The translations under genes were made by a program, and so were the position numbers. Shown in pieces: positions 16,329 through 33,218 of a stretch of 64,000 bases of DNA (its first letter is position 1; every line of letters begins with the position of its first letter). The stretch is from positions 6,113-70,112 of the IMG/VR virus record IMGVR_UViG_3300049138_000182; one strand, 5' to 3'. The notes below the pieces were generated by a model. That model made no database searches. It worked only from the letters and a program-made list of their open reading frames with translations, and had not been told where the DNA came from. Origin of the DNA: a virus.

Positions 16329-16499
16329 CTACCTGGACAAGCCGGTGATGCTGGTCTCGACCGTCGCCGACCGGTAGTGCTTCTTCACCGCCTCTTCGAT
16401 GACCTTCTGGAGCTTCTCTTTCGCCGCCTCCGCGGCCTTCTCGCTTCTGTACGACCGGCCGACGTCCACGGATGCCGTGACGTAGTAATCCGTTGCCAC
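16329..16499 (-). CDS. small hypothetical protein
   Basis: AAGGAGG RBS with GTG start. Confidence 0.55.
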   Translation of the reverse strand: MATDYYVTASVDVGRSYRSEKAAEAAKEKLQKVIEEAVKKHYRSATVETSITGLSR

Positions 16500-16557
16500 T
16501 GTTCCTCCTTTGGGCATGAAAAGCCGACCCCAGGTCGGGGCCGACACACACTGTGGA

Positions 16558-17544: not shown

Positions 17545-17610
17545 GACTGCTCCTTTAGGACGTGAAAAAGCCGGCCCCAGGTCGGAGCCGGCTAGTCAGT
17601 ACGTATGTGG

Positions 17611-17874
17611 TTAGCGGGGAGCCAAGTGCCTCTCCAGCTCCTCGCCCGCGTAGATGCATATAGCTTTCAGGAGTGCCGCACGCATATCGGGGGCCGGGTC
17701 AAGCTTCTTCTGGTCCAAGCCCATGACAATCGCCCAGGTGTTGTCGTGGCGCGAAGCGATGCGCGCGACCTTGGTCTCACCAGCAGGCGTGATGAGCCAG
17801 ACGTCGTGTTCGCCCGCGCCCAAGTCCTTGACTTGAAACAGCACGTCGTTCTCTGATACCTCGCGAGATTCCAT
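17611..17874 (-). CDS. hypothetical protein
   Basis: CCCACACAGAGAGGGAG leader. Confidence 0.6.
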   Translation of the reverse strand: MESREVSENDVLFQVKDLGAGEHDVWLITPAGETKVARIASRHDNTWAIVMGLDQKKLDPAPDMRAALLKAICIYAGEELERHLAPR

Positions 17875-17903
17875 GTGCTCCCTCTCTGTGTGGGAATTTC
17901 GGG

Positions 17904-18263
17904 CTATGACTCAGTCTCTGCTAGGTCTCGAATGGTTGCGGCGACTCCGAGCACCCGTGAGTGTGGGATGGTGACGCCTGAACCGGTGTGCTCGCCTCGT
18001 TGGTACAGGTCGAACCGGACGCCATCACGAGCCAGCTCGATCAGCGCGGACAGCCCTTCCTCCGCGTCGAGCTGGAAAATCTGGGGGGCGAAAAATGCCT
18101 CCCGCTTCAGTCCGGCCAGTAGATCGGTCAGCTTGTCCACCGTCGGTTTGTCGAGGATGAACCCCCAGTCTCCGACCTCTACCCAGAGAGCACCACGGCC
18201 GCTAAGGCGGGGGTCTGGGTCCAGCGTCATCATGTCGTCCGGCCCGAAAATTAGATCAGCCAT
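17904..18263 (-). CDS. hypothetical protein
   Basis: GAGG RBS. Confidence 0.6.
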   Translation of the reverse strand: MADLIFGPDDMMTLDPDPRLSGRGALWVEVGDWGFILDKPTVDKLTDLLAGLKREAFFAPQIFQLDAEEGLSALIELARDGVRFDLYQRGEHTGSGVTIPHSRVLGVAATIRDLAETES

Positions 18264-18293
18264 GGTCGCCTCGTGCTCGAATTCTAGGCTTCA

Positions 18294-18545
18294 CTACTTG
18301 CCGTTCAGTATCTCTTGAACAGCTTTCACTACATCGGATATCTCGGTAAGGCGATTCTCGTCTCCGTTTTCGGCCATGATCGTGTACCGGAAGGATTCCA
18401 CGAGAATCGATACGTATTTAGGCTTGTTGCAAGTTATGACTCTTATTTGGTGAACACAGCCTCTACTCCCTGGAATGTGCATGGTGAATAGCTGCGCGAC
18501 GTCGAACGCTTGCCTAAGCTCTCTGGCTCTACTGGGGATGCTCAT
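18294..18545 (-). CDS. hypothetical protein (lower GC)
   Basis: ORF with purine-rich leader. Confidence 0.5.
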   Translation of the reverse strand: MSIPSRARELRQAFDVAQLFTMHIPGSRGCVHQIRVITCNKPKYVSILVESFRYTIMAENGDENRLTEISDVVKAVQEILNGK

Positions 18546-18580
18546 CTTCTTCTCTCTTAGGCGAGGATGAATTTCGGGCC

Positions 18581-19084
18581 CTAGGCCGGCCGCTCTCCCG
18601 AGCACACGGGACACGGCTTGTCGTAGGCGTGCGGCTGGTCATCGGCCGGCATCGGAGCGACGCTGTAACCTTGGTGGCGCCAGGACTCCATGGCCGCCTG
18701 GGCGTTCTCGACCTTGTGGCCCAAAGTCGAGTTGTTGCGGACGTGCACGACACCCTTGAACTGCTCGGTTGCCATAGCCTCTAGCTCCTGCTTCTCGTCG
18801 GCGATCTTTTCGAGCTCCGCGGCGTACGCCGCGGTCACCTTGTTGTGCGCCTGCTGCCAGCGCTTCATCAGCTCCAGGAGCAGGACCGTACGGGCATCGG
18901 GGTCTAGCTGGTCGTCACGGTAGGGGTTGCAGGCGTCGCAGCCTGCCCCCTTCCACGTCTTGCGGCTGATCTCGGCGTGGGAGCCGTTCTCAGCGGCCGG
19001 CTTGACGGTCATGCCCTGCTCGATCGCCGAGACCAGGCGATCGGTGAACCCTTCGATATCGGCGTGAACGATCTTCTGTGTCAT
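18581..19084 (-). CDS. hypothetical protein
   Basis: GGAGG RBS, ATGA overlap, two CxxC motifs. Confidence 0.6.
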   Translation of the reverse strand: MTQKIVHADIEGFTDRLVSAIEQGMTVKPAAENGSHAEISRKTWKGAGCDACNPYRDDQLDPDARTVLLLELMKRWQQAHNKVTAAYAAELEKIADEKQELEAMATEQFKGVVHVRNNSTLGHKVENAQAAMESWRHQGYSVAPMPADDQPHAYDKPCPVCSGERPA

Positions 19085-19521
19085 GCGTCGTCCTCCCCTG
19101 TGTCCTCGCCCATGGCGCCCTGGAACACGGCTGCCTCGTCCTCCTTGATCAAAGCCTGAAGCAAGTTGCGGGCCGTCTCATTCAGGGCGTAGGTAACAGC
19201 GTTAGTGACCTCGTGCCATTCGAAACGGCCACCGACTTCTAGGTCAGCAGCGTACAAAGCAAGGTCCGTGATGATCTGCCAACGCTTATGAGTGTCGGCG
19301 GGGATGCACTCGTCGGCAACCTCGTTGACAGCCTCAAACAACTCGTCCTCATCGGACGTAGCGAAGAACCGGCCCCGGTACTCGGCGTACCTCTGTGCGA
19401 TACCGGCAAGAAACACTCCGCCCGGAGATTCGGCGCTGTCAGGGTCAGAGATATTCTCGTCGTTCAACTTCTTCACGAGCACGTACGGGTGATAACCCTT
19501 GATGATGTCTTCGTGGATCAT
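19081..19521 (-). CDS. acidic helical protein (possible Ocr-like DNA mimic)
   Basis: GGAGG RBS; very D/E-rich, EVADECIP. Confidence 0.5.
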   Translation of the reverse strand: MIHEDIIKGYHPYVLVKKLNDENISDPDSAESPGGVFLAGIAQRYAEYRGRFFATSDEDELFEAVNEVADECIPADTHKRWQIITDLALYAADLEVGGRFEWHEVTNAVTYALNETARNLLQALIKEDEAAVFQGAMGEDTGEDDA

Positions 19522-19585
19522 GATTTCCTCCAGATTTCAGGCGTTGTGTAATTTGTTTGGTGGTGTGTGGCTAAGACCAGGCAGA

Positions 19586-19774
19586 TTATCCGATGTTCGT
19601 GAGTCGACTGTCCACTAGTACATAAAACAGGACTCTCCGCAGCTCACGCGCGACGTCGGGGTGTACAGTCATACCCTGCCTATTCCCCATGGGGTCACGC
19701 ACGGTAAAAGTGACGTTTCCGTCTTTCCCTATTTCAGCAGTAGCCAGCGCGCGAGGGTTGGGCGTGTCGCTCAT
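19586..19774 (-). CDS. small hypothetical protein
   Basis: GAAGG RBS. Confidence 0.5.
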   Translation of the reverse strand: MSDTPNPRALATAEIGKDGNVTFTVRDPMGNRQGMTVHPDVARELRRVLFYVLVDSRLTNIG

Positions 19775-20035
19775 TCTCTTACCTTCCGATTTGTTGAGCC
19801 GAATTTTTGGGCCCATCTCTGAGTCCTAGCCGACATCGATACCGACACCCCATAGAGCAGGGTATGGGTACCGGGCCGGCTAGGACTCGTCGTCGTCCTC
19901 GCCGTCGACCTCGTCGGGGTACATCCACGACTCGACTTCGAGTGTCTCTCTTTCCTCTGTCGCCGCTCGCTCGTCGTACAGGTCGGGATTGCCGATGAAA
20001 TACTCAGACATTGAGCTGTCCTTTTCTTGGCTTGA

Positions 20036-20566
20036 TCAGTGGGACATCGGGGAGTGTTCCCCGTCGTTGTTCTCGGGGCACTCGGCGCTGTCGTCCTCGC
20101 CGTACCACACCCCCGCGAAATTCGGGTGGACGTCTTTCTCGCAGTGACGGCATGTCTTGACGTTCATACCGGCATACCACTCTTCGCACTTCTCCACGAA
20201 GGGGCGCATTGCGTTAGGAAGTTCGATCTTGCCGGTAGCGAGGTCCCGAACGCCGATGTTCAAGTCACCTTCAGGGCCGAAGCCCTTTACCAGGATCTGA
20301 GACGTACCGGGCTGCCAGATGAATTCGACCTCTGCGAGCTCGTAGCGATAGACGACAGCGCCGTCACTGTCACGGCTGAAGAGGTAGCGTCGTGCGTCGC
20401 ACTCGCCGTTAGCGTGGCGTGTCTCGTACAGCGGCTTGCCATTGAGACTGTCCGCAGTAGTTGTCAGGACCTGGACCCCGGCACCCTTGATCTCTTGGCT
20501 GCACCAGCCGCACGTGTAGTTGCCAGCACTCAGCGGCTTGGTCCAGGGGTAGTCAATCTGAAGCAT
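20036..20566 (-). CDS. hypothetical Cys/His-containing protein
   Basis: CCCACACAAGGAAG leader; CGWC, CRHC. Confidence 0.6.
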   Translation of the reverse strand: MLQIDYPWTKPLSAGNYTCGWCSQEIKGAGVQVLTTTADSLNGKPLYETRHANGECDARRYLFSRDSDGAVVYRYELAEVEFIWQPGTSQILVKGFGPEGDLNIGVRDLATGKIELPNAMRPFVEKCEEWYAGMNVKTCRHCEKDVHPNFAGVWYGEDDSAECPENNDGEHSPMSH

Positions 20567-20670
20567 GGTTGTGTCTTCCTTGTGTGGGTTGCCCGAATTT
20601 CGGGCCCAAGCTGACATCCATGCCGCCAGACTCCCCTAGGTCTGGCGGCATGGGGCCGGCTAGGACCGGG

Positions 20671-20985
20671 CTAGCTGTTCTCGACTACGTCCTGGTAGTA
20701 GTGCTCGCCGAGCTCGCGCCGGTCGATGTTGCTGAGCATCTCGCTGAACAACAAGCCCGTGACGCTGCCGTAGTCGTCGGCCAGCCCGCCAGCCTCTTCC
20801 TTGATGAAGTCAACGATGCTTTGGCCAACCGCTTCGTAGTAGTAGGCCGGCTCGTGGTTCCCGGACCGGTCCTCCCAGTCAAACCCCTCATTGTGCAGCG
20901 CGTCACGAGTCGCTTGGTGCGCCCCGTTGTAGCCAGCCTCGACGTTGTCAAGGATCTTGGTAACTTCGCCGGTGTCCATGATCAT
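20671..20985 (-). CDS. acidic hypothetical protein
   Basis: AAGGA RBS. Confidence 0.6.
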   Translation of the reverse strand: MIMDTGEVTKILDNVEAGYNGAHQATRDALHNEGFDWEDRSGNHEPAYYYEAVGQSIVDFIKEEAGGLADDYGSVTGLLFSEMLSNIDRRELGEHYYQDVVENS

Positions 20986-21121
20986 GTCCTTGTCTCGTGG
21001 TGCTCGTAGGGTATCCGCCCTGACCGACAGGGGCAGGGAGGATGCAGCCAGACCTAGCTGACTCCCCGAGACTCCCGGCACCGGCCAAATTTCGGGCCAG
21101 CACGGGAGACCAGGGAGCCGG

Positions 21122-21394
21122 CTAGCTCAGTGCGCCAGCGTTGATGAGGGTGAACAGGCTCTCCGCATATTCGCGGTTGTGGATCTCCGAGCTGTAGGAG
21201 TCCTCGCCGCCCTCCTCCTTTTTGATCACGTAGACGACGCTCGGCTCTTCCAAGTCCGGGAAGAGCGCCGGTAGCTCGAAGGCCAGTAGGTACAGGACTA
21301 CGTCAGCGCCCCGCGAACACCGCTCCGTGCGAAAGGTGATAGCTGGGTTGACGTCGTCCGCCGTGAACCATTCGATCTTGCCGATTGCTGCCAT
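21122..21394 (-). CDS. hypothetical protein
   Basis: CCCACATAAGAGAGG leader. Confidence 0.55.
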   Translation of the reverse strand: MAAIGKIEWFTADDVNPAITFRTERCSRGADVVLYLLAFELPALFPDLEEPSVVYVIKKEEGGEDSYSSEIHNREYAESLFTLINAGALS

Positions 21395-21431
21395 GGTCTT
21401 ACCTCTCTTATGTGGGTGGAAATTCGGGCCG

Positions 21432-21755
21432 CTAGCGCTTTGGCATGCGGTCCATCTCGGATCGGATGTACCGGATCAGGCCGTCAAGCTTCGCCTTACG
21501 TTTGATGACCATGTGTGAGACCGTGTCACTGTGATCGTCCACGGGATAGCGCGTGACGTCCCAATCCCATGGGATCGTGAGATCGGGCTCTAACCCGTCC
21601 GTAGTGGTCGATGCGACCGTGATAATCCATCCGTGCCTACGAATGAAGAGCACGTAGCAGGACCCGCCGAGGTTCTCTAGCACAGCCGGAATTCCGGCGA
21701 GATTGAGATCCCAGAGGACAGAGTCATACTGCTGTCTCAGTTGTTCATAGAACAC
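21432..21755 (-). CDS. hypothetical protein (N-terminus similar to 26177-26761)
   Basis: GIPAVLENLGGSC versus GIPVVVEQTGGFC. Confidence 0.55.
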   Translation of the reverse strand: MFYEQLRQQYDSVLWDLNLAGIPAVLENLGGSCYVLFIRRHGWIITVASTTTDGLEPDLTIPWDWDVTRYPVDDHSDTVSHMVIKRKAKLDGLIRYIRSEMDRMPKR

Positions 21756-21775
21756 TTGCTTGCCTCTCTCGTCGG

Positions 21776-22384
21776 CTAGTTCTCTAGATGCCAGGTCGAA
21801 TTTTCGGCGTGACGCTTGGCGCTGCGTAGGGTGCGGTGGTATGACGCGAACAGATGGATTGGCTTAGTCCGACAGGGAGTGATCCCACGGAAGTCACGAA
21901 GTTGCCACGGCCTTAGAGGATTGGCGAAGGGTCGGAATTGAACTGTGACCATGGCATTGATCGCGGGCCGATCTGCGACATAGTGCAGACCCAGCCGTCT
22001 ACGCTGCCATACCAGCGGCGACACCCTAGCCGTCGGCCATTCCTCCCAGATGATCGAGCGGATGTAGTCGTTATCAACGAGGTATGGCGACGTGTAGTCG
22101 CCTTCTAAGTCGGTGTCGTCGAGAACACCGATTGCGCAACTAGAGTCGATAACTTCAGCGCCCTCGCAGGAGTACCCCTCGTGCTCAGGACATGCCCGAT
22201 AAATAACGTACTCCCATGCGCGGTAATCGCCAGCCGCAAATTTGGCGATATCCGAAGCGTCGTAACAGTCGTACTCGCGCGGGTTGTGATCGTAGTCCTC
22301 TTCGATTCGAACCCGGTACGGCGTGTCTCGGTTCATGAGCTTTCGGCGCTTCTCAGTTACTGCGGTGAATCGCACGTAGGTCAC
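21776..22384 (-). CDS. hypothetical protein
   Basis: CCCACACAAGGAAGG leader. Confidence 0.6.
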   Translation of the reverse strand: MTYVRFTAVTEKRRKLMNRDTPYRVRIEEDYDHNPREYDCYDASDIAKFAAGDYRAWEYVIYRACPEHEGYSCEGAEVIDSSCAIGVLDDTDLEGDYTSPYLVDNDYIRSIIWEEWPTARVSPLVWQRRRLGLHYVADRPAINAMVTVQFRPFANPLRPWQLRDFRGITPCRTKPIHLFASYHRTLRSAKRHAENSTWHLEN

Positions 22385-22479
22385 GGGCTGACCCTTCCTT
22401 GTGTGGGTGTGACTGCACGGTCATAGGAGGGAGCCCGATGCCCCTTTTAATCGGGCTCCCAGCTAAAAACGGGCAGGCG

Positions 22480-22770
22480 CTAGGCGGCCTTCACCCGTAC
22501 GGGTTCCGTAAGTTCCCTGTAGAACTCATCGGCCCGAAGCTTGACCAGCGCATCGGCCATCTCGGCGCATTCGTCGCCTCCCCTGTCGAGAAGCAACATC
22601 AGGAACACCCGTAGGTCCCTGGTCTTGGCCTTCACAGCGATCCGGTAGCCCGCGGCGTCCGTACCGGTCCCGAGCTTCTCGGCTAGCCGGCCTCGCGCTT
22701 CCATGTAAGCGATAACGCCGATCAGTTCCGTAACGTGTAGGTCGGCAAGCTGCCGTACGTCTGCGCGCAT
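22480..22770 (-). CDS. hypothetical protein
   Basis: CCCACACAAGAAAGG leader. Confidence 0.55.
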   Translation of the reverse strand: MRADVRQLADLHVTELIGVIAYMEARGRLAEKLGTGTDAAGYRIAVKAKTRDLRVFLMLLLDRGGDECAEMADALVKLRADEFYRELTEPVRVKAA

Positions 22771-22834
22771 TGGGTGGTGCCTTTCTTGTGTGGGATACAA
22801 GAAAGGGCCCGAGAAATCGGGCCCTAGGATGTTG

Positions 22835-23236
22835 CTAAGAGAACGTCACTTTGAGGTGATAGGACCGACGGGGCCCGAGCATCCACGTGTCGTAATTGAT
22901 CACGCGACCGTTATCAGGTCTCGTCTTCCCGTCAGGGTTAGTCGGGAAAGGATGCAGGCGGATCGATCCTTTACCTACACCGGACACTTCTTTAGCGACA
23001 TCGATCGACCACCCTGCTACGTAGTACGGGGTAACCGTCCTGCTGTCGTCCAAGAGGTAGATTGACTTCAGGGGATACTTGAATATCTCGATGTGCGGAT
23101 CGTGGATCTGGACGCAGTTAATCACAGTCTCCGTGTCATACATCTCCCCTTCCCCGAAACCTTCATTTCGGTTGAATTCACGGTCATCCAGCGCGACCGT
23201 GAATTTGAAGGGGCGCATGGGGGTGTCCTTGGGCAT
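22835..23236 (-). CDS. hypothetical protein
   Basis: Leader motif; lies downstream of hammerhead 1. Confidence 0.55.
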   Translation of the reverse strand: MPKDTPMRPFKFTVALDDREFNRNEGFGEGEMYDTETVINCVQIHDPHIEIFKYPLKSIYLLDDSRTVTPYYVAGWSIDVAKEVSGVGKGSIRLHPFPTNPDGKTRPDNGRVINYDTWMLGPRRSYHLKVTFS

Positions 23237-23269
23237 GACGAAATCGGCCTTTCGCTTGTGTGGGGTGTG

Positions 23270-23343
23270 CGGCTTGCCATCATCAGGGGACAGGTAGCCA
23301 ACCAGTGTCCCGACGGGCCCGAAATTCGGGCCCGTTTCGGCTA
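23270..23343 (-). ncRNA. type II hammerhead ribozyme 1
   Basis: GCC-GAAAC-GGGCCC(GAATTTC)GGGCCC-GTC-GGGACA..TGTCCC-CTGATGA-T-GGC; loop I TGGCT can pair with 3' tail AGCCG. Confidence 0.9.
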
Positions 23344-23868
23344 CGCCCAGTCTTTCGGCAGGATGCCCTTGCCCTTACCGCTAAGCCATTCGTCTAATTC
23401 GGTGAACGTCTCGACGAGGTCCAGCTTGTGGCAGGCGATGAGTGTCATCGTGTCGGGCTTGTTGCTGGCGAACAGCTCTTGCAAGGCTTCGGATGCGTTG
23501 CGCATTACGGCTATAGCCTTATGGGGGTTGAAAATCTCCTCCCAGAGCCATCGCCCGCCACCGATGGTGTAGTAACCATCGGCATCGGGCTCGCAAATCT
23601 CGGGCTCGTAGTTGTCGAGGTCGTGATACTGGCGCTCATCGTGGATGAGCTTGACTCCGTCCCACGTTAACTGCATGCCGTCGTAGGGGTCAGCCTGATG
23701 CGCGGCGTTGAGATCACGGGCGACCCTTTCGGCTACCTCTCGGGTGAAGTATGGGACTACGTAGCCATTCTTACCGGCTGAGCGTCCCGAAATCCGGGCC
23801 GGATAGGGCCCTAACGCGTCCTCGAATCCAACGGTGGTCTCTACCCACTGCGGTGTTTCGTCGGTCAT
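23341..23868 (-). CDS. hypothetical protein, paralog family A
   Basis: PYFTREVAERV...EPDADGYYTIG shared with 25747 and 26848 genes. Confidence 0.65.
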   Translation of the reverse strand: MTDETPQWVETTVGFEDALGPYPARISGRSAGKNGYVVPYFTREVAERVARDLNAAHQADPYDGMQLTWDGVKLIHDERQYHDLDNYEPEICEPDADGYYTIGGGRWLWEEIFNPHKAIAVMRNASEALQELFASNKPDTMTLIACHKLDLVETFTELDEWLSGKGKGILPKDWA

Positions 23869-23940
23869 GGTGGTGTCTCCTCTTGTGTTTTCCAGGCCCG
23901 TAACCAGGTCAGTTACGGGGTATCCAGCGTCGCGAATCCC

Positions 23941-24651
23941 CTAGAGGTACGAGTCACACCATGCACTGAGACCAGGGCGCCATTCAGGACCGTTAGGCCA
24001 GTTGGCGCGGTAGATTCGGCTCGTGTCGTACAGGTACACGTGGGTGCGGCTGACTAGGAGAAAGCCGCATGCTTCGTTCTCGACGTTGACGAACTCGTAG
24101 TTCGCAAGTCCATCGTCTCCGCTGTACGGCCGGATACCGAACTCGTCAGCCCCAGCCATGAATGTCTGAGTGCCTAACTCGCTGGTGTAGCCGAAGGGCT
24201 CGCTTAGTGGTGTGGTGTCGTCCGGCTCATCGTCTTCGTCGTCGTCGGTGATGTGACATGCACGATCGAATTCGACTTCTAGCCACGCGATGAGCTCGGC
24301 CACGGTATCCGCGCGACCGTAGGACACGTGCATGATGTCTTGGTTGGATGCGTGCTCAAGGACAACCCCACGCCTAATGCACATGCTTGACAGCTCTGAA
24401 CGCTTGTCAGGCAGCCCGGACGTCCAATCATTTTCGACGTTGAGACGGGAGATGCTGTACTCCCAGCCAAGGAATTCGAATCGAATGAAGGCGATGAACG
24501 TAGGGGGGCCGTCCACGTGGGGATCTGGCGAGATGCTTTCGGTGATGTCCTTCTGTGCCTCACGTGACCAGTGGCGCCACTCATAGGTCATGGCCCTAAT
24601 GGCATCGAGAATGTCGCTGTACTCACGTTCGAAGTCTTCGACGGATGTCAT
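23941..24651 (-). CDS. acidic hypothetical protein
   Basis: AAAGGAG RBS. Confidence 0.6.
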   Translation of the reverse strand: MTSVEDFEREYSDILDAIRAMTYEWRHWSREAQKDITESISPDPHVDGPPTFIAFIRFEFLGWEYSISRLNVENDWTSGLPDKRSELSSMCIRRGVVLEHASNQDIMHVSYGRADTVAELIAWLEVEFDRACHITDDDEDDEPDDTTPLSEPFGYTSELGTQTFMAGADEFGIRPYSGDDGLANYEFVNVENEACGFLLVSRTHVYLYDTSRIYRANWPNGPEWRPGLSAWCDSYL

Positions 24652-24671
24652 AGACTCGGCTCCTTTCTGGC

Positions 24672-25079
24672 CTAGCTCCACTTGGTCACGGAGTTGAACG
24701 GCTTACCGTCACACGGGATACTCTCGAATTCGGCCGTGACGCGTACGGAGTAGTGTGTATCGCCGATCTTGTAGACGGCAGCACCACCGATGCCGAATGT
24801 CGAGAGGGACCATGTCAGGTCACGATCGGCGATTGACGAGAGGATGGCGCTTGCGTCCGTGCTCTCATCCATGCCGAGACAATCGGGCCGCTCGCCATTC
24901 TCCATAGCAGGCCGGCAGTGCTCACATGACTTGTCATGCTCGTTGGCAGCGCTCTCTTCTACGTCACGCGCCGCATCCCTAAGGAATTCGGCCACTTCCG
25001 TAACGCTCTTGGCGCACTGCACGAATTCATCGGGCAGGCCAACCGTGCCGATGTGATACCGAAGTGCGTTGTCTGTCAT
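24672..25079 (-). CDS. hypothetical protein
   Basis: CCCATACAAGGAAGG leader. Confidence 0.6.
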   Translation of the reverse strand: MTDNALRYHIGTVGLPDEFVQCAKSVTEVAEFLRDAARDVEESAANEHDKSCEHCRPAMENGERPDCLGMDESTDASAILSSIADRDLTWSLSTFGIGGAAVYKIGDTHYSVRVTAEFESIPCDGKPFNSVTKWS

Positions 25080-25110
25080 AGGGCACCTTCCTTGTATGGG
25101 TACTCTGAGC

Positions 25111-25172
25111 CGCTGAGCTCATTACAGGGTCGCTAGTCGATATCGGCTAGCGACCCCATGACGAAATCAGCG
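25111..25172 (-). ncRNA. conserved covarying hairpin motif, copy 1
   Basis: CGCTGA-TTTCGTCATG-GGGTCGCTAG..CTAGCGACCC-TGTAATGAGC-TCAGCG. Confidence 0.6.
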
Positions 25173-25697
25173 CGTGGGGTATGTGCACGCGAGCAAGATA
25201 AGGTCGTCGACCTCCTCACTCAGGTATCGGAACGTCTGCACCTGCTGCATCCAGGAGGGCAGATCGCGCGTGTCCTGCAGCCCATGCCAAGCGGCTCTCT
25301 GATCGTCCGTGGCAAAGCTTGTGTGCTGGGCATGCCCCTGGTTCAGCGTTTCCTTCGAAACGCTGGTAATCCGTTCCCGTGTCTGCTCTGGGTACAGGTG
25401 AGCATCGATGATGGCCACCACCCGATCAGCCGAAAGATCGGCTCCGAACGAGAGCAGCTCTCGATCGTCCTCGCTGCGGTACTCGTCTTCGTCGCGATAC
25501 CAGTTGACTAGCCATGTCTCCGTGCCGTCGGGACGTTCCCCATCTCCCGGTGTGATTCCGAGCAGTGCGTCATCTTCCAGCACGATCCACAGAACGGGGA
25601 TGTTGCTGTCTTTATTTTCGATGTACCACGGAATCTCTTCGGCCCGAATATCGTCCTCGTGTTCCAGCCGTGCGCGCATCGGCTCTAGCCACGTCAT
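25167..25697 (-). CDS. hypothetical protein, paralog family B
   Basis: C-terminal DDLILLACTYP shared with 26177 gene. Confidence 0.65.
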   Translation of the reverse strand: MTWLEPMRARLEHEDDIRAEEIPWYIENKDSNIPVLWIVLEDDALLGITPGDGERPDGTETWLVNWYRDEDEYRSEDDRELLSFGADLSADRVVAIIDAHLYPEQTRERITSVSKETLNQGHAQHTSFATDDQRAAWHGLQDTRDLPSWMQQVQTFRYLSEEVDDLILLACTYPTR

Positions 25698-25746
25698 GGG
25701 TGTACCTTCCTTGTGTGAGTACTCTGAGCTGAGCTCATCTGTTGCC

Positions 25747-26085
25747 TTAGGCGCTTGCCCTAGCGTCTGACCATGAATACCAATTCGCGCCGATGACGTA
25801 GAAGCCATCGGAATCGGGCTGGATCAGTTCCCCTCTATAGTCGTTTGACTCCACTGCTGGAATGATTTCGTAAAGGCGAATCGCGTCACCTTCCCACGTG
25901 AGACGGAATCCGCCGTCAGGATTGAGTGCGAAATCTTGGGCGTTGAGCACGTCAATAACTCGTGACGCAGTCTCACGAGTGAAGCGCGGAGTGACATATC
26001 CACCCCAATGGACATGCTCGATCATTTGTGCGGGGAACGTTTCGTCGATGTCCTCGTGCTTGACGTGTCCGTCGTACCACTGCAT
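25747..26085 (-). CDS. hypothetical protein, paralog family A
   Basis: PRFTRETASRV...QPDSDGFYVIG. Confidence 0.65.
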   Translation of the reverse strand: MQWYDGHVKHEDIDETFPAQMIEHVHWGGYVTPRFTRETASRVIDVLNAQDFALNPDGGFRLTWEGDAIRLYEIIPAVESNDYRGELIQPDSDGFYVIGANWYSWSDARASA

Positions 26086-26118
26086 GGGGTACACCTTCCT
26101 TGTGTGGGTACTCTGAGC

Positions 26119-26182
26119 CGCTGAGCTCATTACAGGGCAGCTAGACGAGATGCCGGCTAGCTGCCCCATGACGAAATCAGCG
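26119..26182 (-). ncRNA. conserved covarying hairpin motif, copy 2
   Basis: Same flanks as copy 1; inner stem GGGCAGCTAG/CTAGCTGCCC shows compensatory change. Confidence 0.6.
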
Positions 26183-26761
26183 CTCGCTTGTCTGACTCTT
26201 GTCCGGGTACGTGCAGGCCAGCAGAATGAGATCGTCGATTTGCTCGGGCGTGTACTGGTACAGACTCACGCGCGTGAGCCACTCGGGAACTGCCCGACTG
26301 TCCCTAAGGGAACCGAAGATCTGCGCCTTCTCGTGGAACCACCCTTTACGGTCAATCCGAAGCCTGCCGGGATTGAGCGTCTCCTCTGAAACACGGGTGA
26401 CTGTTGTTAGGCGTACCTCGGTTGAGTTGGTGTGCGCGCGAATCAGTGCAACGACCCGATCGGAATCAGCGTGCCAGTCCAGCACCGGAGGGTCGATGTC
26501 CTCACGGTCGGGATAGAAGCACACCAGCCACGTTCCGGGCCGGTATTTCTTTTCGTCGTTGTATTCACCGGGCGTGATACCGATGTATTCGGTGTGACCG
26601 TCGTTGAGGTAGACGGTAGCGACCATGCAGAATCCTCCGGTCTGTTCGACCACGACCGGAATACCGAGCTTGCGAAGGTGAGCTGTGATCGGGTCAAGAC
26701 CCTGATCCGTGGCTGCGCTCTTACAGACTTCCTCGTAAGAGCTCGGGGTGTTGTCAGTCAT
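26177..26761 (-). CDS. hypothetical protein, paralog family B
   Basis: GTWLVCFY...RVVALI...VSEETLN...IDDLILLACTYP. Confidence 0.65.
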   Translation of the reverse strand: MTDNTPSSYEEVCKSAATDQGLDPITAHLRKLGIPVVVEQTGGFCMVATVYLNDGHTEYIGITPGEYNDEKKYRPGTWLVCFYPDREDIDPPVLDWHADSDRVVALIRAHTNSTEVRLTTVTRVSEETLNPGRLRIDRKGWFHEKAQIFGSLRDSRAVPEWLTRVSLYQYTPEQIDDLILLACTYPDKSQTSER

Positions 26762-26784
26762 GCTGTGTCCTCTTGTGTGGGGTT

Positions 26785-26850
26785 TGGTCTGCCATCATCA
26801 GGCGCGTGTGACCATTCACGCGCGACGGGCCCTAGGGCCCGTTTCGGCTA
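26785..26850 (-). ncRNA. type II hammerhead ribozyme 2
   Basis: GCC-GAAAC-GGGCCCTAGGGCCC-GTC-GCGCGTG(AATGGTCA)CACGCGC-CTGATGA-T-GGC-AGACCA; pseudoknot TGGTC/GACCA. Confidence 0.9.
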
Positions 26851-27366
26851 GGGGTTGAGATCGAGAACACGCACCATGTCGAACGGAGAATCGTCTAGGC
26901 GCTCGGAACCGCCTAGGCATTCGGCGATCGTGTCAGGGTCCGGAGACCAGCCACAGGGGGCAAGTAGCCGCGCGTCGTTTCGCTTCAGCGCGTCTCTTAC
27001 CGCAGTCTCGACGCTTTCGGCGTCATGCTTGGGAACGATGACTACCGCTGTGAGAGCGATGATCTCGACCTCTTCCCAACCCCATGCATTGATCGCGTAC
27101 ATGTCGTCAGAATCCGGCTCGATGTGCACGGGTCCGTCGACGTCGCCCGTGATAACGCTGTCGTCAGACCAGCGCAGATACTGACCATTGCCATACGTCG
27201 CGTTCGATTCGTCGACGATACGCCTAGCCGTCTCGGCGTTGAATCGCGCCTTGACGGTGGTGTAGTTCGCCGCTCGCGTCTCACTGCCTACGAGAATTTC
27301 GGCGGGATACCACCTACGCTCTTCGCCGCTGTCGACGCTGACGAATCCCTTACGGTACTCAGTCAT
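26848..27366 (-). CDS. hypothetical protein, paralog family A
   Basis: ARFNAETARRI...EPDSDDMYAIN. Confidence 0.65.
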   Translation of the reverse strand: MTEYRKGFVSVDSGEERRWYPAEILVGSETRAANYTTVKARFNAETARRIVDESNATYGNGQYLRWSDDSVITGDVDGPVHIEPDSDDMYAINAWGWEEVEIIALTAVVIVPKHDAESVETAVRDALKRNDARLLAPCGWSPDPDTIAECLGGSERLDDSPFDMVRVLDLNP

Positions 27367-27448
27367 GGTGTGCCTCTCCTGTGTGGGTAGTCCTAGGCGT
27401 AGCGCACTAGGCCATGGCAAAGGGCCCGTGAAACTCACGGGCCCTTCA

Positions 27449-27757
27449 CTAAAGCCGTGCGAGTACAGACGCTAGATCGCGACCGTCAAAGAACGTCACT
27501 TCTGCGAAAGTCGCGAGATCGAATACTTTCCCAGTCTCGACCTTGTGCAATGACTGGTTGAATGATGCGTGCATGCCGGAACCGGGAAGTCCGAGCATGG
27601 AGCCGTTGGGAAGCTGGTAACCCTCGTACTTGACGTAGAGAGTTCCAAACTCCTTACTCTCCCAGATTCCGTACGCGTCTTGCCGACGGTCGGAACTGCG
27701 AGGTTTCGAAAGCGCCTTACCAATTCGCTTGTACGGGTCCATGTAACGGTCATGCAT
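27449..27757 (-). CDS. hypothetical protein
   Basis: CCCACACAAGAGAGAAAGG leader. Confidence 0.6.
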   Translation of the reverse strand: MHDRYMDPYKRIGKALSKPRSSDRRQDAYGIWESKEFGTLYVKYEGYQLPNGSMLGLPGSGMHASFNQSLHKVETGKVFDLATFAEVTFFDGRDLASVLARL

Positions 27758-27845
27758 GGTTGAGCCTTTCTCTCTTGTGTGGGTGACGTCAGTTCACTAC
27801 CGGGCCCGCATTCCCCGAATTTCGGGCCCGACTAGTCAGCTAAGG

Positions 27846-28235
27846 TCACTCCGCATCGCTGTTGTATTCCATTTCCTCTGTAAGTACATCGGGGGCGACT
27901 CTGTCCCAACCGGCTTGAGCGCCACGTTCCCCGCACTTACGTGCGTAGGTCTTAAGGCAACGAAGCATTTCGACGTTCTGGGCAGCGGTGCCTAGATCCT
28001 TGACTGTCTCGTCAGCGTCGAAATGCTGCGGACTAGACTTGACAACGCGAATTTCGGCGTCAATCTCTGCGAAGAGATCCGGAGTAACGGTCCCCGTTGA
28101 ATTGAGCCGGAGAAAGCCGATGTTGCTAGAGCTAATCCAGCCTGCTGCAATGCCCTTTGCAGTGCCGTCATAGATTGGCGTGTCGGTGCGCTTTGCACGA
28201 GCCACGTCAGCCATGATCAGATCGAGAGTATTCAT
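27846..28235 (-). CDS. hypothetical protein (weakly similar to 29327-29656)
   Basis: A..IA..W.S...RL...G.(V/I)T pattern. Confidence 0.55.
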   Translation of the reverse strand: MNTLDLIMADVARAKRTDTPIYDGTAKGIAAGWISSSNIGFLRLNSTGTVTPDLFAEIDAEIRVVKSSPQHFDADETVKDLGTAAQNVEMLRCLKTYARKCGERGAQAGWDRVAPDVLTEEMEYNSDAE

Positions 28236-28272
28236 AAATCGACACCTTCCGTGTGTAGGGAATGAGAACAGC

Positions 28273-28331
28273 ATTGATCTCATTACAGGGTCGCTAGCCG
28301 TGCCGGCTAGCGACCCAATGACAAGATCAAT
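28273..28331 (-). ncRNA. conserved covarying hairpin motif, copy 3
   Basis: ATTGATCTTGTCATT-GGGTCGCTAGCCG(GCA)CGGCTAGCGACCC-TGTAATGAGATCAAT; outer stem differs but still pairs. Confidence 0.6.
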
Positions 28332-28506
28332 CCCGCTTGTCGTACTTCCATGAGCCGAGCTTGTTACCGTTGCTGCAGCGAATCACGCCACCCGTATAAC
28401 CGTCGAACACGTCGCCCGTGATTTTCTTCAGAATTTCGGCGATCTCTCCGGAGTCGTGTGGGTCATCGAACGCCGAACCGGTTACTTCAAACTCAAGCTT
28501 GAACAT
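28327..28506 (-). CDS. small hypothetical protein (59 aa, MFKLEFEVTGSAF...)
   Basis: CCCACACAAGAGGA leader; too short for the ORF track. Confidence 0.6.
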   Translation of the reverse strand: MFKLEFEVTGSAFDDPHDSGEIAEILKKITGDVFDGYTGGVIRCSNGNKLGSWKYDKRD

Positions 28507-28529
28507 GCTGTGTCCTCTTGTGTGGGTTG

Positions 28530-28596
28530 CTGGTCTGCCATCATCAGGTATGCGCGACCAATCACATACGACGGGCCCTAGGGCCCGTTTCGGCTA
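28530..28596 (-). ncRNA. type II hammerhead ribozyme 3
   Basis: GCC-GAAAC-GGGCCCTAGGGCCC-GTC-GTATGTG(ATTGGTCG)CGCATAC-CTGATGA-T-GGC-AGACCAG. Confidence 0.9.
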
Positions 28597-28938
28597 TCCC
28601 GCCATGTGGCGGACTATCGCACCGGTTTCTGTCTTGCTCCGTACGCTGAAACTGTAAAGCGTGCCTGCCCCGAGGTAGTCGATTCCCTTACGCATAAGGG
28701 CAGCGAACCTACGGAATTCAGCAGTAGACGTGTCACATTCGATACGACACGCGTTGTTTCCGGAGGGGAAGAGTTTGACGTCCGCACCGACCGTGCGTGC
28801 GCCGATTTCGACAGCACGCATGACGCGCTGGATATCGGCACACGGGTGACAGAAAAAATCTTTTGGACCGGTTGGCTTCATTGGCTTACCACACAGACCG
28901 GAGTCGGTTTCGGACCACCTAATGTGTTTGCGTGCCAT
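28594..28938 (-). CDS. hypothetical protein with N-terminal H/C motif
   Basis: H...LCG...CHPC; AAAGG RBS. Confidence 0.6.
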   Translation of the reverse strand: MARKHIRWSETDSGLCGKPMKPTGPKDFFCHPCADIQRVMRAVEIGARTVGADVKLFPSGNNACRIECDTSTAEFRRFAALMRKGIDYLGAGTLYSFSVRSKTETGAIVRHMAG

Positions 28939-28956
28939 GGTGTTTACCTTTCTTTG

Positions 28957-29235
28957 CTAGACGAAAATCGGGCCCACGTAGAACCGATACCTAGCGCGTG
29001 CGTGGTATGCCCTTTCGAGCATGAGTAGGTAGCGCTCTTCGTGGAAATTCGGCTCTGACTGGTCGTATCGAATCGCGTCGTATGCGAGATAGGCGCACAC
29101 AGCACCGTTGATACGGAACTCAAAGCGCTCTCTGTCATCGTGGGCGTATATGCTCACGTGCGTGTCCCGAATGAACAGGCTGTAGATCCTTGTGAAGTCT
29201 TGCGGAGCCGCTAAGTACAGTTCGCATGTGTTCAT
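28957..29235 (-). CDS. hypothetical protein
   Basis: CCCACACAAGGAAAGG leader. Confidence 0.55.
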   Translation of the reverse strand: MNTCELYLAAPQDFTRIYSLFIRDTHVSIYAHDDRERFEFRINGAVCAYLAYDAIRYDQSEPNFHEERYLLMLERAYHARARYRFYVGPIFV

Positions 29236-29326
29236 CGTTCGACCTTTCCTTGTGTGGGTTTCGTCGGAACGCCCGTACGCCCGATCCCATGAGGAAATCG
29301 GGCGTACTAGCGAGGCTCACGAACAC

Positions 29327-29656
29327 CTAGGCCACGGTCAGCGATTCCCAGCCCTTCACAGGCTTACGCGACTTGGAACACCGACTTACGTACATGTCGA
29401 GTGCCATAAGCTGCGCGTATGCGTATTCGGAGAATCCGGGCGTAGCCGAGATGTCATCGGCTATGCGCGAAATTTCGGCGCGTAGGAGAGTCGCGTCCGT
29501 GATTCCGCCACACATGGCCAGTCTGTAGAGCTCGCTTCTCTGGCCGCTCTTCCACGTGTGCGCGATGTGCCGTGCTACGGGGTGCGTGACGTACTTACGC
29601 TTGCCGCAAATGACCTGATCGATCTGCGTACCGATGACAATCGCCTGAGTACTCAT
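29327..29656 (-). CDS. hypothetical protein
   Basis: Leader motif variant with AAAGG. Confidence 0.55.
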   Translation of the reverse strand: MSTQAIVIGTQIDQVICGKRKYVTHPVARHIAHTWKSGQRSELYRLAMCGGITDATLLRAEISRIADDISATPGFSEYAYAQLMALDMYVSRCSKSRKPVKGWESLTVA

Positions 29657-29682
29657 GTGTTCGCCTTTCGTTGTGTGGATAT

Positions 29683-30084
29683 CTAGATCCACGCGTAACC
29701 ACGTGCGGGATTGTCGGCAGGGCAGGCAAAAACGGCATGGGCCGTCACGAGAACTGGCTCGTTGTCGGACGTTGTGGTGAACGTGCCTGCCCTGTCAGGT
29801 GCCGGGTTATAGGTGACGCGCTCCCTACCCGTGATGTCAGGAGCACTGTTCACGGCTTCCACCACACCGACAACCCAAGCGTGAACAGTTCGCTTTCCAA
29901 GTCGGTGTGACCGGTCACGCCCCTTGGCCGAAACCTTGAAGGTCACGTCGCTAAGGCTCACGTCTGTGAGGTTCGCGATAACACGCCCGGAATTCGGGCC
30001 CGTCATTGCTGTGACTGACCAAAGGTGCGTGTGCAAGTTGAAGTGCACACGCACACGCTCGCCTATGAGTGCGTGTACGCTCAT
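29683..30084 (-). CDS. conserved phage hypothetical protein
   Basis: VHFNLH..WSV...GRVIA...FKVS..GR...VHAWVVG...YNP, a pattern I recall from other phage proteins. Confidence 0.65.
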   Translation of the reverse strand: MSVHALIGERVRVHFNLHTHLWSVTAMTGPNSGRVIANLTDVSLSDVTFKVSAKGRDRSHRLGKRTVHAWVVGVVEAVNSAPDITGRERVTYNPAPDRAGTFTTTSDNEPVLVTAHAVFACPADNPARGYAWI

Positions 30085-30172
30085 GTGTTCGCCTTTCTCT
30101 TACTTGTGTGGGTTTCGCAGGAATGGCAATGTGCCCGATTCTCAGTATCGAAAATCGGGAACAAAGCCAGCG

Positions 30173-30472
30173 CTACGAACGCTTGATTTCGCCTGTCTCA
30201 TGCCATGACGTGAACGCGTCACGCAGATTGATACGGCATGAGCTCTTTCCTTCGGCGTAGTTAAGAGCGTGCTCCCAGTAGGCCAGCGCGAATTCGTCAG
30301 CCTGATAGGAGTCGTGTTCTCCTCCCCTGTCTTGCCATCCCCATACGTAGGTAAGTGCTTGTTCGTACAGGCGTTGCGGCTCACCTCGCTTGAATTCAGG
30401 CAACGCGCTGGCACGCTTGCGAAGTTCCGTGCCCTTTTTTGCGTTCCTTGTGATGCGTTCTACGGCATCCAT
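30173..30472 (-). CDS. hypothetical protein
   Basis: CACACAAGAAAGG leader. Confidence 0.6.
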   Translation of the reverse strand: MDAVERITRNAKKGTELRKRASALPEFKRGEPQRLYEQALTYVWGWQDRGGEHDSYQADEFALAYWEHALNYAEGKSSCRINLRDAFTSWHETGEIKRS

Positions 30473-30654
30473 GTAATGGCCTTTCTTGTGTGGTGGGTTT
30501 CGTGACTCACGAATTAACCGAAGAGAACTTCACAGATGTCGTGAAACTCTGAGTATGAGATCAGACCACACGCGTACTCGTCGCGAACTTGCTGGTAAAC
30601 ATCAATCGCTGGCCTGCCGTACATACTGTTTCCTTTCCTCGGTTTCTGTCTAAG

Positions 30655-30718
30655 CCGTTCTAGCGGGATTCGAACCCTGTACGCCGAAATTCGGCGCGCA
30701 ACCGACTTGCCTAGAACG
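30655..30718 (-). ncRNA. tRNA-like structure (non-canonical)
   Basis: CGTTCTAG/CTAGAACG acceptor-like stem, GCAAGTCGGTTGC arm, GCGCCGAATTTCGGCGT arm, GGG-TTCGAAT-CCC T-arm; no CCA. Confidence 0.55.
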
Positions 30719-31199
30719 CGTGAGTAGTTACCCATGTGGTTAGGGACGCTACGCCCTTCCATGCTCACGGGCTGATCAGGCAATGCACCTTTGTTCTGAT
30801 ACAGATCTAACTGTTGTCAGGGGGGAACACATCCTGATCGCTTCGGATGACACGTTCGCCTTTTTCAGACCTGTTGCTGTAACACGAGCTAAGCACGCTC
30901 ATTCCGAAATGAATCGTTGTCCTCGACAGACAGGCGCGACTAATGCCATCCCCGATCACGTGCGTTGCCATGTCGCATTCATGGTTTGTCACGTGTCCGG
31001 TGATCTCTAGCGGGTGGTTCACACCATAGAGATACGCGCATTGCCAAGGAGATGCGCACCCTTGTCCCGTAGGACTCTTGCCCGATCGGTCGGGCCAATT
31101 CCCCAACGCTTAGCGTGCGTTGGAACGAAACCGGCTTACACGATGCCCACCTACGTACGCCGCAATACGTAGGCCGAAAATCGGGCGCAAACCCTAAGG

Positions 31200-32560
31200 C
31201 GGTGCGCGAATCATCACTAATCTCCCTTCACTAGCTATCTGTCGTCTGACCTTTCAGCAGAGAGAACGCGCTTTGGTGAAACCGGCTAACTCGCTTTGAG
31301 GAGAAACCTCAACTCAGATTGCGAGCCAGAGAGCCGTTCCCGTTCCCGTTCTTCTGACAATTCATAAGGTACGCCCGCTTGCCTGCCAGTGGAAGGCATT
31401 TTATGTAACGAGACGATAACGCTATCCCTCACGTCTGGATCGTTCACGTCTGATTGATTCAGCAACGCTGTGACCTGCACAAACGTCCATCGAAAGCGCC
31501 GGCCTTTGCTAAATGATCTTGGTTCAAATCGCCGGCACCGGAAAGATGATCTTGTTTTCTGCTCTGTATCAGAGCTGATCGGGCACGATCCCCGATCCCC
31601 GCCTGCTCTCTGCGAAGCGCGAAATTTCGGCGCAAGCGGCGGCTCTGAGAGCCACAGAGCCTGTCTCCCCCATAGACAGAGACTCTGTGAGGACTCCGTG
31701 AGAGCCGACGGCAGCGTAAGCCGTAGGCGCGAATCAAGAGGGGGGAAGGGAGGGGAGGGGGGAGATCTGTACGGGAACCGAGCTCGGATGGACCGACGGA
31801 CGGATGTCACGGAGAGTGATTCTCACAAATGTCACAGAATGTAATAATGAGCAAGGCTCGCAGCTCGCCAAACGATCTTCGCTCGCGGAAGGGATGATCA
31901 ACTAGTGATACCCCCCGACCGTATGGAGATCAGCCCACACCGACGGAGCCGAACCATGATCATTTCGACAGTGTCAAGATCATCCACTATCGCGCTGTCT
32001 ATCATGATCTTGGTCAGCGGCTGTCAGATTGAGCGTTTCAGCAGGTCAATACCTATTCTCCTCCCCTGGTTTGGTGTGCATCCCTGTGACATCACGTCAA
32101 CCGGAGTCAGTAAGGCCACCGAAAAAAATTGTGGTCCGGGGGGTACCTGGCATACCGGAGGGGGGTACCCTTAAACGATCATGCACGCGCCGGCCTAGGC
32201 TGATTTCCCGGATGCGATTTGGTCTACACAGAGTGACAGTGGCCTCGGATGGCCGGCTCGCTCGATCCCCGCATTGGTTACCTTTCGCTACTTTCGCAGG
32301 TCATGGCCACTCCCCTGCCGTCGGCGAGCTCGGGCTGCTAGGGTCCGCTCTTGGTGGCGTTTCGCTGCCAAGGGCCTGTCGGGGCCGGGGGCACGGCTCC
32401 CTGGAGTACTCCCGATGGGCCTTTTTGCTGTCCGGACGTGGCCCAGGTAACGGTGCGGTCGAGAAGTCGAGAGGTGTATTTGATCATCCCGTAGCACTTT
32501 CGGCACTTCTCTACCAATTCGTTATCTTGCGAGACGGGAACTTCCGTTACGTCAGGGACA
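31200..32560. promoter_or_regulatory. large non-coding divergent control region (possible genome terminus or origin)
   Basis: Switch from minus- to plus-strand genes, lower GC, no ORF with coding bias, G-tracts and GGGGGTACC repeats. Confidence 0.55.
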
Positions 32561-32606
32561 GCCCTTGTTGTACGGTCATGACACGCCTAGCGAGGAGCAA
32601 ACATCA

Positions 32607-33218
32607 GTGATAGACGTTAAGGATCCGGTCACCGGACCGCCGTGGTGGGACGACTTCCTGTGTCGTATCCGCCTCAACGGCGGACTCATCCGGGACGCGC
32701 TGACGGAGATGGACATGCATCCCCAGATCCATCAGCCGCACGTAGCCAAGTCGGACACGCTGCGGAGCCAGCTCGATGAAGCAGTCGAGGCCGGCAAGCA
32801 GCGTCACAGGACGAACAAGGCCAAGCGCATCCTCCAGGCCTACGCCGCGGGGATGACGCTGACCGAGGCAGCGGCGACGGAAGACCTGCATGTCGCACAG
32901 GTCTATGTCCTGCTGGAGAACACCGGCCTTCGCGGGGAGTACGAGAAGCTCCGTGACTCGGCGAACTCTCAGAAACGCGACTACCGGAGCGGTGTCGCGT
33001 TTCTACGGAGAGAGCTCGACCGTGACCGCGAAGAGTTCGCTGACGGGGTCACGCTGTCGTACATCAACACGGTCCGGAACGTCGTCGACGTGCTGGATCG
33101 AGATTCGGCGCAGCTACGCGAGCTCGGTGTCAACGGGCTGCGTAACGCGGTGCTTCGTGAACTCGGCGTGATCTTCGCCGACGAGGCCGACTTCCCCAAG
33201 TTCCTGAACAAGGGGTAG
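32607..33218 (+). CDS. HTH-like DNA-binding protein (possible terminase small subunit)
   Basis: GAGGAG RBS; ILQAYAAGMTLTEAAA...VY HTH-like segment. Confidence 0.5.
   Translation: MIDVKDPVTGPPWWDDFLCRIRLNGGLIRDALTEMDMHPQIHQPHVAKSDTLRSQLDEAVEAGKQRHRTNKAKRILQAYAAGMTLTEAAATEDLHVAQVYVLLENTGLRGEYEKLRDSANSQKRDYRSGVAFLRRELDRDREEFADGVTLSYINTVRNVVDVLDRDSAQLRELGVNGLRNAVLRELGVIFADEADFPKFLNKG

Follow-up and report, generated by a model that had tools for sequence, protein, structure and literature searches.

Three type II hammerhead ribozymes lie in the gaps between small genes in a gene array of an uncultivated, soil-type phage, within 5.3 kb and all on the minus strand, in the 64,000-nucleotide (nt) stretch of viral DNA analysed here (the window, bases 6113-70112 of the 70,112-base IMG/VR virus record IMGVR_UViG_3300049138_000182). 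The record is classed as linear, has a CheckV completeness estimate of 71% and carries a terminase, a portal and an integrase. The ribozymes will be denoted HH3, HH2 and HH1 in descending order of coordinates. As judged from covariance-model searches and alignments, they are genuine type II hammerheads clustered in a phage gene array; such clusters between phage genes have been known since 2011, and the window adds a further example. We consider it likely that the three ribozymes cut a long leftward phage transcript co-transcriptionally in the gaps between its small genes, thereby leaving hairpin-capped pieces.

HH3 (28528-28596), HH2 (26782-26850) and HH1 (23267-23343) are matched by the Rfam family Hammerhead_II (RF02276) with 53.1 bits (28529-28595), 61.0 bits (26783-26849) and 31.7 bits (23267-23342), respectively. 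The gathering score of the family is 37 bits, and HH1 is seen only in a permissive scan; of the Rfam matches expected by a first-pass annotation of the sequence, HH2 and HH3 are thus confirmed above gathering, whereas HH1 falls below it. The copies of the window being left out, a covariance model termed R1 was trained on 94 further phage hammerheads, all of them with the extra-U form of stem II described below. It recovers all three sites with 69.6 bits (expectation value E 1e-16), 74.8 bits (E 4e-18) and 53.6 bits (E 2e-12) for HH3, HH2 and HH1, respectively. The covariance-model matches agree with the coordinates originally proposed to within 3 bases. No fourth hammerhead is found in the window with R1 at E <= 10, and the whole 70,112-base record yields no Hammerhead_II match beyond the same three.

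Read from 5' to 3' on the minus strand, each ribozyme is composed of UAG-CC-GAAA-C, the stem III hairpin, the GUC preceding the cut, the stem I hairpin, CUGAUGA-U-GGC and a tail. The core positions used as criteria in Perreault 2011 (PMC3088659, Methods), namely C3 U4 G5 A6 N7 G8 A9, G12 A13 A14, A15.1-U16.1 and H17, are all present in HH1, HH2 and HH3 (C3-A9 as CUGAUGA, G12-A14, A15.1-U16.1 and C17), and the core-adjacent pairs 1.1-2.1 and 15.1-16.1 are G-C and A-U in all three. The full type II core claimed by the first-pass annotation, with CUGAUGA, GAAAC and GUC correctly placed, is hence found at every site in the Rfam and R1 alignments. These alignments and the predicted folds also agree on the type II topology, in which loops cap stems I and III and stem II is open. 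Stem II consists of three base pairs (GCC/GGC), in HH3 with a bulged U, and its outer G is the G of a TAG stop codon. An extra U between A9 and G10.1, that is between CUGAUGA and stem II, had been noticed in the three copies and is indeed present in each of them. It is aligned as an insertion by Rfam, has to be bulged out for the G10.1-C11.1 pair to form, and recurs in more than 112 IMG/VR stretches. In HH3, stem III is a hairpin of the GGGCCC-UAG-GGGCCC type and stem I is GUAUGUG/CGCAUAC; stem I of HH2 is GCGCGUG/CACGCGC. HH1 has a longer loop I of 13 nt, and its low Rfam score is due to this loop and to a longer stem III rather than to a damaged core. Stem III was also considered as a transcription terminator and ruled out, since no U run follows it.

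The loop I/tail pseudoknot is formed by UGGUC/GACCA in HH2 and by UUGGUC/GACCAG in HH3, as located by script. In HH1 it was assigned by hand as UGGCU/AGCCG (four Watson-Crick pairs and one G-U pair), the best run of the script being UGGUU/AGCCG, likewise with five pairs. With five, five and six contiguous pairs in HH1, HH2 and HH3, respectively, all three have at least the four pairs expected of a type II pseudoknot. The pseudoknot sequence of HH1 differs from that of HH2 and HH3 with pairing kept, as does stem I between HH2 and HH3, so that both covariations read from the sequence at first pass hold up. The same is found in the family. Among the 94 other phage copies 92.7% of the cells are paired, whereas shuffling gives 71.5% and sliding the partners 30-44%. 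For the pseudoknot helix the paired fraction is 85.6%, and each of its five pairs shows substitutions in both strands. Five or more consecutive pseudoknot pairs are seen in 73 of 106 distinct copies, compared with 29% (maximum 37%) when the tails are permuted. For HH1 and HH2, the minimum free energy (MFE) structure computed with RNAfold is the canonical three-way junction (z = -2.87 and -2.76, respectively). The canonical fold of HH3 has -25.0 kcal/mol versus -25.9 kcal/mol for the nested MFE structure, an alternative that uses the pseudoknot strands.

Hand alignment of HH2 and HH3 shows them to be identical from TAG to GUC, from CUGAUGA to the pseudoknot strand and from the downstream leader to the ATG, while 9 of the 22 positions of stem I and its loop differ. 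Within stem I, these differences comprise three double compensatory changes (C-G to U-A, G-C to A-U and C-G to U-A) and one change from U-A to U-G. As the coding sequences flanking the two ribozymes are unrelated, the repeated unit is exactly the cassette from stop to start. Such a unit would also be expected if the ribozymes were copied passengers, stop-to-start modules spread by recombination between leader repeats with little or no benefit to the phage and with some copies perhaps inactive. The leader is in fact repeated at 29 sites, and none of the three Streptomyces phages with related terminases (Alone3, BRock and pSt2308; 58-62% identity) gave a Hammerhead_II match, although a blank search is no proof of absence. 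However, none of the three cores is damaged, HH2 and HH3 diverge mainly in stem I with its pairing kept, as expected under selection for the fold, and HH1 retains the pseudoknot in a different sequence. In view of this, mere carriage of the ribozymes appears very unlikely.

Self-cleavage is predicted after C17 of the GUC, i.e. at 28570/28569 in HH3, 26824/26823 in HH2 and 23312/23311 in HH1. These positions were obtained by hand count on the sequence and from the Rfam (HH3 and HH2) and R1 (HH1) alignments, and they coincide with the sites named in the first-pass annotation. In the proposed mechanism, the motif of about 70 nt would fold while the polymerase traverses the gap, stems III and I forming as hairpins and the three base pairs of stem II last, whereupon the loop I/tail pseudoknot would lock stems I and II side by side. 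Cleavage would then take place 29-32 nt from the upstream TAG. The upstream message would retain its stop codon, and its 3' end would be the G+C-rich hairpin of stem III, bearing a 2',3'-cyclic phosphate. The downstream message would carry its 5'-OH on the base that begins the stem I helix, and the leader, the Shine-Dalgarno sequence and the start codon would follow a few bases downstream. Leader and Shine-Dalgarno sequence are largely unpaired in the 3' products predicted for HH2 and HH3. We infer that cleavage occurs in vivo and that its benefit would lie in providing each cistron with defined, hairpin-protected ends and in insulating translation starts from upstream sequence.

Several precedents are in line with this proposal. 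Clustered phage hammerheads are generally assumed to process a polycistronic transcript; they cleave in vitro and, in the case of one triple arrangement, in E. coli (PMC3088659). In Desulfovibrio vulgaris, in vivo cleavage has been shown for three hammerheads of type II that are located close to phage-like genes (PMC8782182), and a ribozyme insulator in E. coli increased transcript levels about 2-fold and protein levels 2- to 10-fold (PMC6206723).

The opposite outcome, a lowering of the downstream genes by cleavage, would result if the 5'-OH product became the substrate of a 5'-3' exonuclease, RNase J for instance; the three genes preceded by ribozymes would then be made less, or for a shorter time, than their neighbours. 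Actinobacteria carry RNase J, and the host of the phage is probably an actinobacterium, given the identity of its terminase to those of Streptomyces phages and Atlas neighbours that belong to Actinomycetota, the latter at lead level only. A precedent from a Gram-positive bacterium is provided by Bacillus subtilis, in which the 5'-OH produced by glmS ribozyme cleavage targets the RNA downstream to decay by RNase J1 (PMC3328962). Contrary to what such an exonuclease would require, the first base of the predicted 3' product is paired at the foot of the stem I helix of 6-7 base pairs and leaves no single-stranded 5' end; moreover, the insulator mentioned above raised expression in E. coli (PMC6206723). 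We therefore regard a lowering of the downstream genes as improbable.

Each of the three ribozymes starts on the stop codon of the gene upstream of it. The first three bases of HH3 (28594-28596), HH2 (26848-26850) and HH1 (23341-23343) are the TAG stops of the minus-strand open reading frames (ORFs) 28594-28938 (114 residues), 26848-27438 (as listed from a GTG) and 23341-23868 (175 residues), respectively, as had been stated at first pass. For the ORF upstream of HH2 the true start is likely the ATG at 27366, which is located behind a leader and a Shine-Dalgarno sequence. The three TAGs are considered real stops because each upstream ORF has a Shine-Dalgarno sequence before its start. Read-through of the TAG was rejected as a general explanation: the gap of HH3 (87 nt) keeps the flanking frames aligned, but those of HH2 (86 nt) and HH1 (104 nt) do not.

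The overlap is not special to the window; it is a family-wide habit of phage type II hammerheads. It was analysed in an extra-U sample of 117 matches (103 distinct ribozymes), in which the two bases before stem II were left unconstrained and ORFs of at least 40 codons were considered, and in another sample, of 149 matches (143 distinct) that lack the extra U. In the former, the TAG overlap (position -2 relative to stem II) is found in 29 of 103 ribozymes (28%) and the flush position (-3) in 27, followed by 11, 6 and 3 at -4, -5 and -6; the stop is further upstream in 16 cases and at +12 in 3, and 8 ribozymes are without ORF. In the latter, the overlap is found in 38 of 143 (27%), followed by 19, 18, 15, 10, 5 and 3 at -3 to -8; a more distant upstream stop is found in 19 cases and one at +12 in 2, and 14 ribozymes are without ORF. 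In 104 of the 117 extra-U matches stem II is preceded by an A, irrespective of stop codon usage. As the 5' edge of the ribozyme consists of this conserved A and the first G of stem II, any preceding U provides a UAG for free, and tight packing accounts most simply for the overlap. TAG is at the same time the commonest stop of the leftward array (10205-32497, minus strand), where it ends 27 of 55 heuristic gene calls, so that three TAGs at the ribozymes are unremarkable in themselves. G+C-rich DNA does not usually show such a preference. In the whole window the hexamer TAGCCG is found 58 times, versus 24.6 times expected.

The position of the stop codon has a bearing on a further possibility, namely that cleavage is gated by translation. 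A ribosome terminating on the UAG would cover the 5' strand of stem II, the GAAA and the 5' half of stem III, as the ribosome footprint reaches roughly 12-15 nt past the A site. Folding would then be possible only between ribosomes, and cleavage together with the fate of the downstream message would report the translation load of the upstream gene. The stop codon lies inside the ribozyme in all three copies, the exact overlap recurs at the rates given above, the positions -2 and -3 together accounting for the stops of 56 of 103 and 57 of 143 distinct ribozymes in the two samples, and the distance of 29-32 nt from TAG to cut would still permit termination on the cleaved RNA. However, pressure for compaction predicts the same spread, with the smooth fall-off from -2 to -6 observed in both samples, and neither the conservation of the A irrespective of stop usage nor the prevalence of TAG in the array calls for gating. 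The earlier suggestion that ribosomes terminating on the TAG modulate the ribozymes consequently receives no window-specific support, and we consider gating rather unlikely. Were the UAG in stem II nevertheless a sensor, at which terminating ribosomes keep the ribozyme from closing and thereby set how stable and how well translated the following cistron is, which is similarly doubtful, it would constitute a protein-free link between translation and RNA processing in a large share of phage type II hammerheads. The like rates of overlap in two independent samples turn the interplay of termination and folding into a concrete, testable question. Literature searches retrieved no paper on the overlap, and the term 'stop codon' is absent from the main text of PMC3088659 and PMC8782182, whose supplements could show it.

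Coming back to co-transcriptional processing as the preferred explanation, a number of results weigh against it. When flanking sequence is included, nested-only folding, which excludes the pseudoknot, favours alternatives with an open stem II for all three ribozymes. For HH1 the alternative is better by 4.7 kcal/mol than the enforced hammerhead and contains a 9-bp helix (23236-23280) in which GAUGAUGGC of the core is paired with GCCG..UCGUC just before the downstream start. For HH3 it is better by 3.8 kcal/mol, stem II being dropped in favour of other pairings, and for HH2 by 0.5 kcal/mol, with nothing like the helix of HH1. The latter helix could act as a core-masking alternative; as its competing strand is transcribed later, cleavage may still win kinetically. 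HH1 furthermore stays below the gathering score of Rfam, with E = 0.017 in the window, and the accessible part of PMC3088659 contains no statement on the activity of the extra-U variant. In the light of the glmS/RNase J1 precedent, stabilisation by cleavage is not a given. On the side of comparative data, the blank result for Alone3, BRock and pSt2308 described above is joined by the following. The DNA of 22001-30000 has no match among GenBank phages; the 175-residue protein upstream of HH1 has no pattern match in IMG/VR, and 120 pattern-matching stretches from a metagenome scan contained none of its relatives; a pattern combining hammerhead and leader retrieved two stretches from IMG/VR, neither of which is a hammerhead by Rfam at E <= 0.1; and the exact stem III pattern retrieved no stretch in another metagenome scan. 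For the early region, the collections searched (GenBank phages, IMG/VR and metagenomes) yielded no close relative in which conservation at the same positions could be compared.

In the fold predicted for HH2 in its sequence context, 12 bases near the end of the upstream ORF (26866-26880) are paired across the ribozyme with the downstream Shine-Dalgarno sequence and AUG (26761-26790), possibly by chance.

The genes around the ribozymes form a tightly packed, co-oriented leftward array on the minus strand. Its designation as an early operon is tentative and goes back to the size and position of the genes. Consensus scans of 20000-33000 gave 4 promoter-like sites versus 5.2 expected and 9 terminator-like sites versus 9.8 expected, although these consensus sequences may not fit the host. 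Tight co-orientation and chance-level numbers of such sites fit a long polycistronic transcript. A terminator-like hairpin (22825-22804) is found after the gene behind HH1.

Behind each ribozyme, the leader CCCACACAAG is followed by a Shine-Dalgarno sequence and a start codon, all on the minus strand. Downstream of HH3, the leader (28517-28526) precedes the Shine-Dalgarno sequence GAGGA and the ATG (28504-28506) of a 59-residue gene (28327-28506). Downstream of HH2, it is located at 26772-26781 and is followed by a Shine-Dalgarno sequence and the ATG of a 194-residue gene (26177-26761), and downstream of HH1 at 23255-23264, followed by a Shine-Dalgarno region and the ATG of a 133-residue gene (22835-23236). 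The association recorded at first pass is therefore correct as far as the presence of the leader behind each ribozyme is concerned, but it is not specific to ribozymes, as there are 26 other sites. In total, 29 sites with at most one mismatch occur in the window, versus 4.4 expected, and none of 100 shuffles reaches 29. The motif is on the minus strand at 25 of the 29 sites, and nearly all are positioned directly before a Shine-Dalgarno sequence and start codon between 10.9 and 30.5 kb (10922-30494), the last bases of the motif merging with a Shine-Dalgarno site of extended length. In this phage the leader thus accompanies gene starts in general and does not belong to the ribozyme module.

A rough gene map shows recurrent gaps of 86-91 nt in the array, and those of HH3 and HH2 are of this kind. 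These gaps are occupied by turns by a hammerhead, by an element termed motif X or by a palindromic hairpin, most of them followed by the leader, which suggests interchangeable intercistronic processing cassettes. Motif X is present on the minus strand in three full copies (25080-25169, 26086-26179 and 28236-28329), which begin on the TGA stop of the upstream gene and continue with the leader, and in one partial copy (about 25698-25749). It is predicted to form one long imperfect hairpin of about 24 pairs, with two double compensatory stem changes among the three copies. It has no Rfam match at E <= 10 and no copy in IMG/VR. As a degenerate hammerhead it was rejected on inspection by eye: the core could be matched to CUGUAAUGAG only by assuming an insertion of 2 nt, and GAAA and stem III are missing. 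In its predicted fold, motif X looks closer to a processing hairpin of the RNase III type than to a ribozyme. The palindrome CGAAWWTCGG has 16 matches in the window versus 0.66 expected, mostly as hairpin tips in gaps between 14020 and 31184 (e.g. 20593-20603, 23319-23329, 27815-27825 and 30684-30694). The copy at 23319-23329 is the tip of stem III of HH1, which accordingly shares a standard hairpin module of the phage.

In the early genes of phage T7, RNase III processing hairpins are located in the gaps, and the messages end in protective hairpins. The array described here would share the concept, and motif X in the neighbouring gaps resembles such sites; the hammerheads, on the other hand, act without a host enzyme and produce 5'-OH and cyclic-phosphate ends. 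One natural operon could allow a comparison of ribozyme-based with enzyme-dependent processing.

The same ends have to be considered in connection with excision. Pairs of ribozymes would release the segments 28569-26824 (about 1.75 kb) and 26823-23312 (about 3.5 kb), whose 5'-OH and cyclic-phosphate ends a 3'-phosphate/5'-OH ligase would circularise or rejoin. The end chemistry of hammerheads suits ligation of the RtcB type, and the phage carries other genes concerned with RNA, namely Ro60 with Y-like RNAs. The possibility was raised in Perreault 2011, where such products were sought but none were found (PMC3088659). No RtcB was found in the record, estimated to be 71% complete, and nothing in the sequence would bring the ends together; excision is thus exceedingly improbable.

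Compared with the type II hammerheads of RF02276 as described in PMC3088659, the window copies are alike in core, permuted topology and a loop I/tail pseudoknot of at least four pairs, but differ by the extra U between A9 and G10.1 and, in HH1, by the 13-nt loop I and a score below gathering. The triple prophage arrangements of Agrobacterium tumefaciens, Azorhizobium caulinodans and Clostridium scindens (PMC3088659) also hold several ribozymes among varied small genes, in one transcription unit as is probable for the window, and the role proposed for them, the conversion of long phage transcripts into gene-length mRNAs, is the same. In the window, and at the rates given above in the family samples, the ribozymes start on a stop codon, a term not used in the main text of that paper. 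The hammerheads of D. vulgaris identified by cyPhyRNA-seq (PMC8782182) are of the same type and near phage-like genes as well, and their 5' fragments of 29-32 nt correspond to the distance from TAG to cut in the window. They are found at three separate genome locations, whereas the window holds its three in one gene array. Insulators of the RiboJ type (PMC6206723) also place a ribozyme just upstream of the ribosome-binding site, strip the upstream context and leave a 5' hairpin. RiboJ is engineered and used behind promoters rather than being a natural intercistronic element, so that the likeness is one of working only. Knowledge of the hammerheads themselves is unchanged by the present finding, which adds, from a lineage without a close sequenced relative, a case of a phage operon punctuated by ribozymes that is well resolved.

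The flanking genes offer few functional clues. Pfam assigns no family to any of the ten flanking proteins, and matches to PHROGs were either weak or to families without known function, including weak matches of the 175-residue protein upstream of HH1, one of them to an HNH-like C-terminus. In the Atlas, the 194-residue protein encoded behind HH2 is matched only by hypothetical clusters below 0.9, and the 133-residue protein behind HH1 by nothing. The 194-residue protein has no match among GenBank phages; its distant homologues are about 40% identical over residues 13-64. Ten of the 18 viral loci with such homologues carry Hammerhead_II matches, 17 altogether, which likewise start on TAG or TAA. 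With 10 of 18 loci flanked by hammerheads, gene and ribozyme travel as a pair among distant phages.

Further PHROG matches in the regions 8361-9854, 16558-17544 and 55679-57426 of the window include a DpdA-like queuine tRNA-ribosyltransferase and a PAPS-reductase-like protein, and the integrase adjoins a tRNA-Pro gene at 57351-57426. In the region 40552-44001 (minus strand), a Ro60-like protein with a TROVE domain (41211-42980, minus strand) adjoins a weak match to an RNase_T-type exonuclease (40552-41214, minus strand), and several matches to YrlA-like and tRNA-like RNAs are located at 43065-44001.

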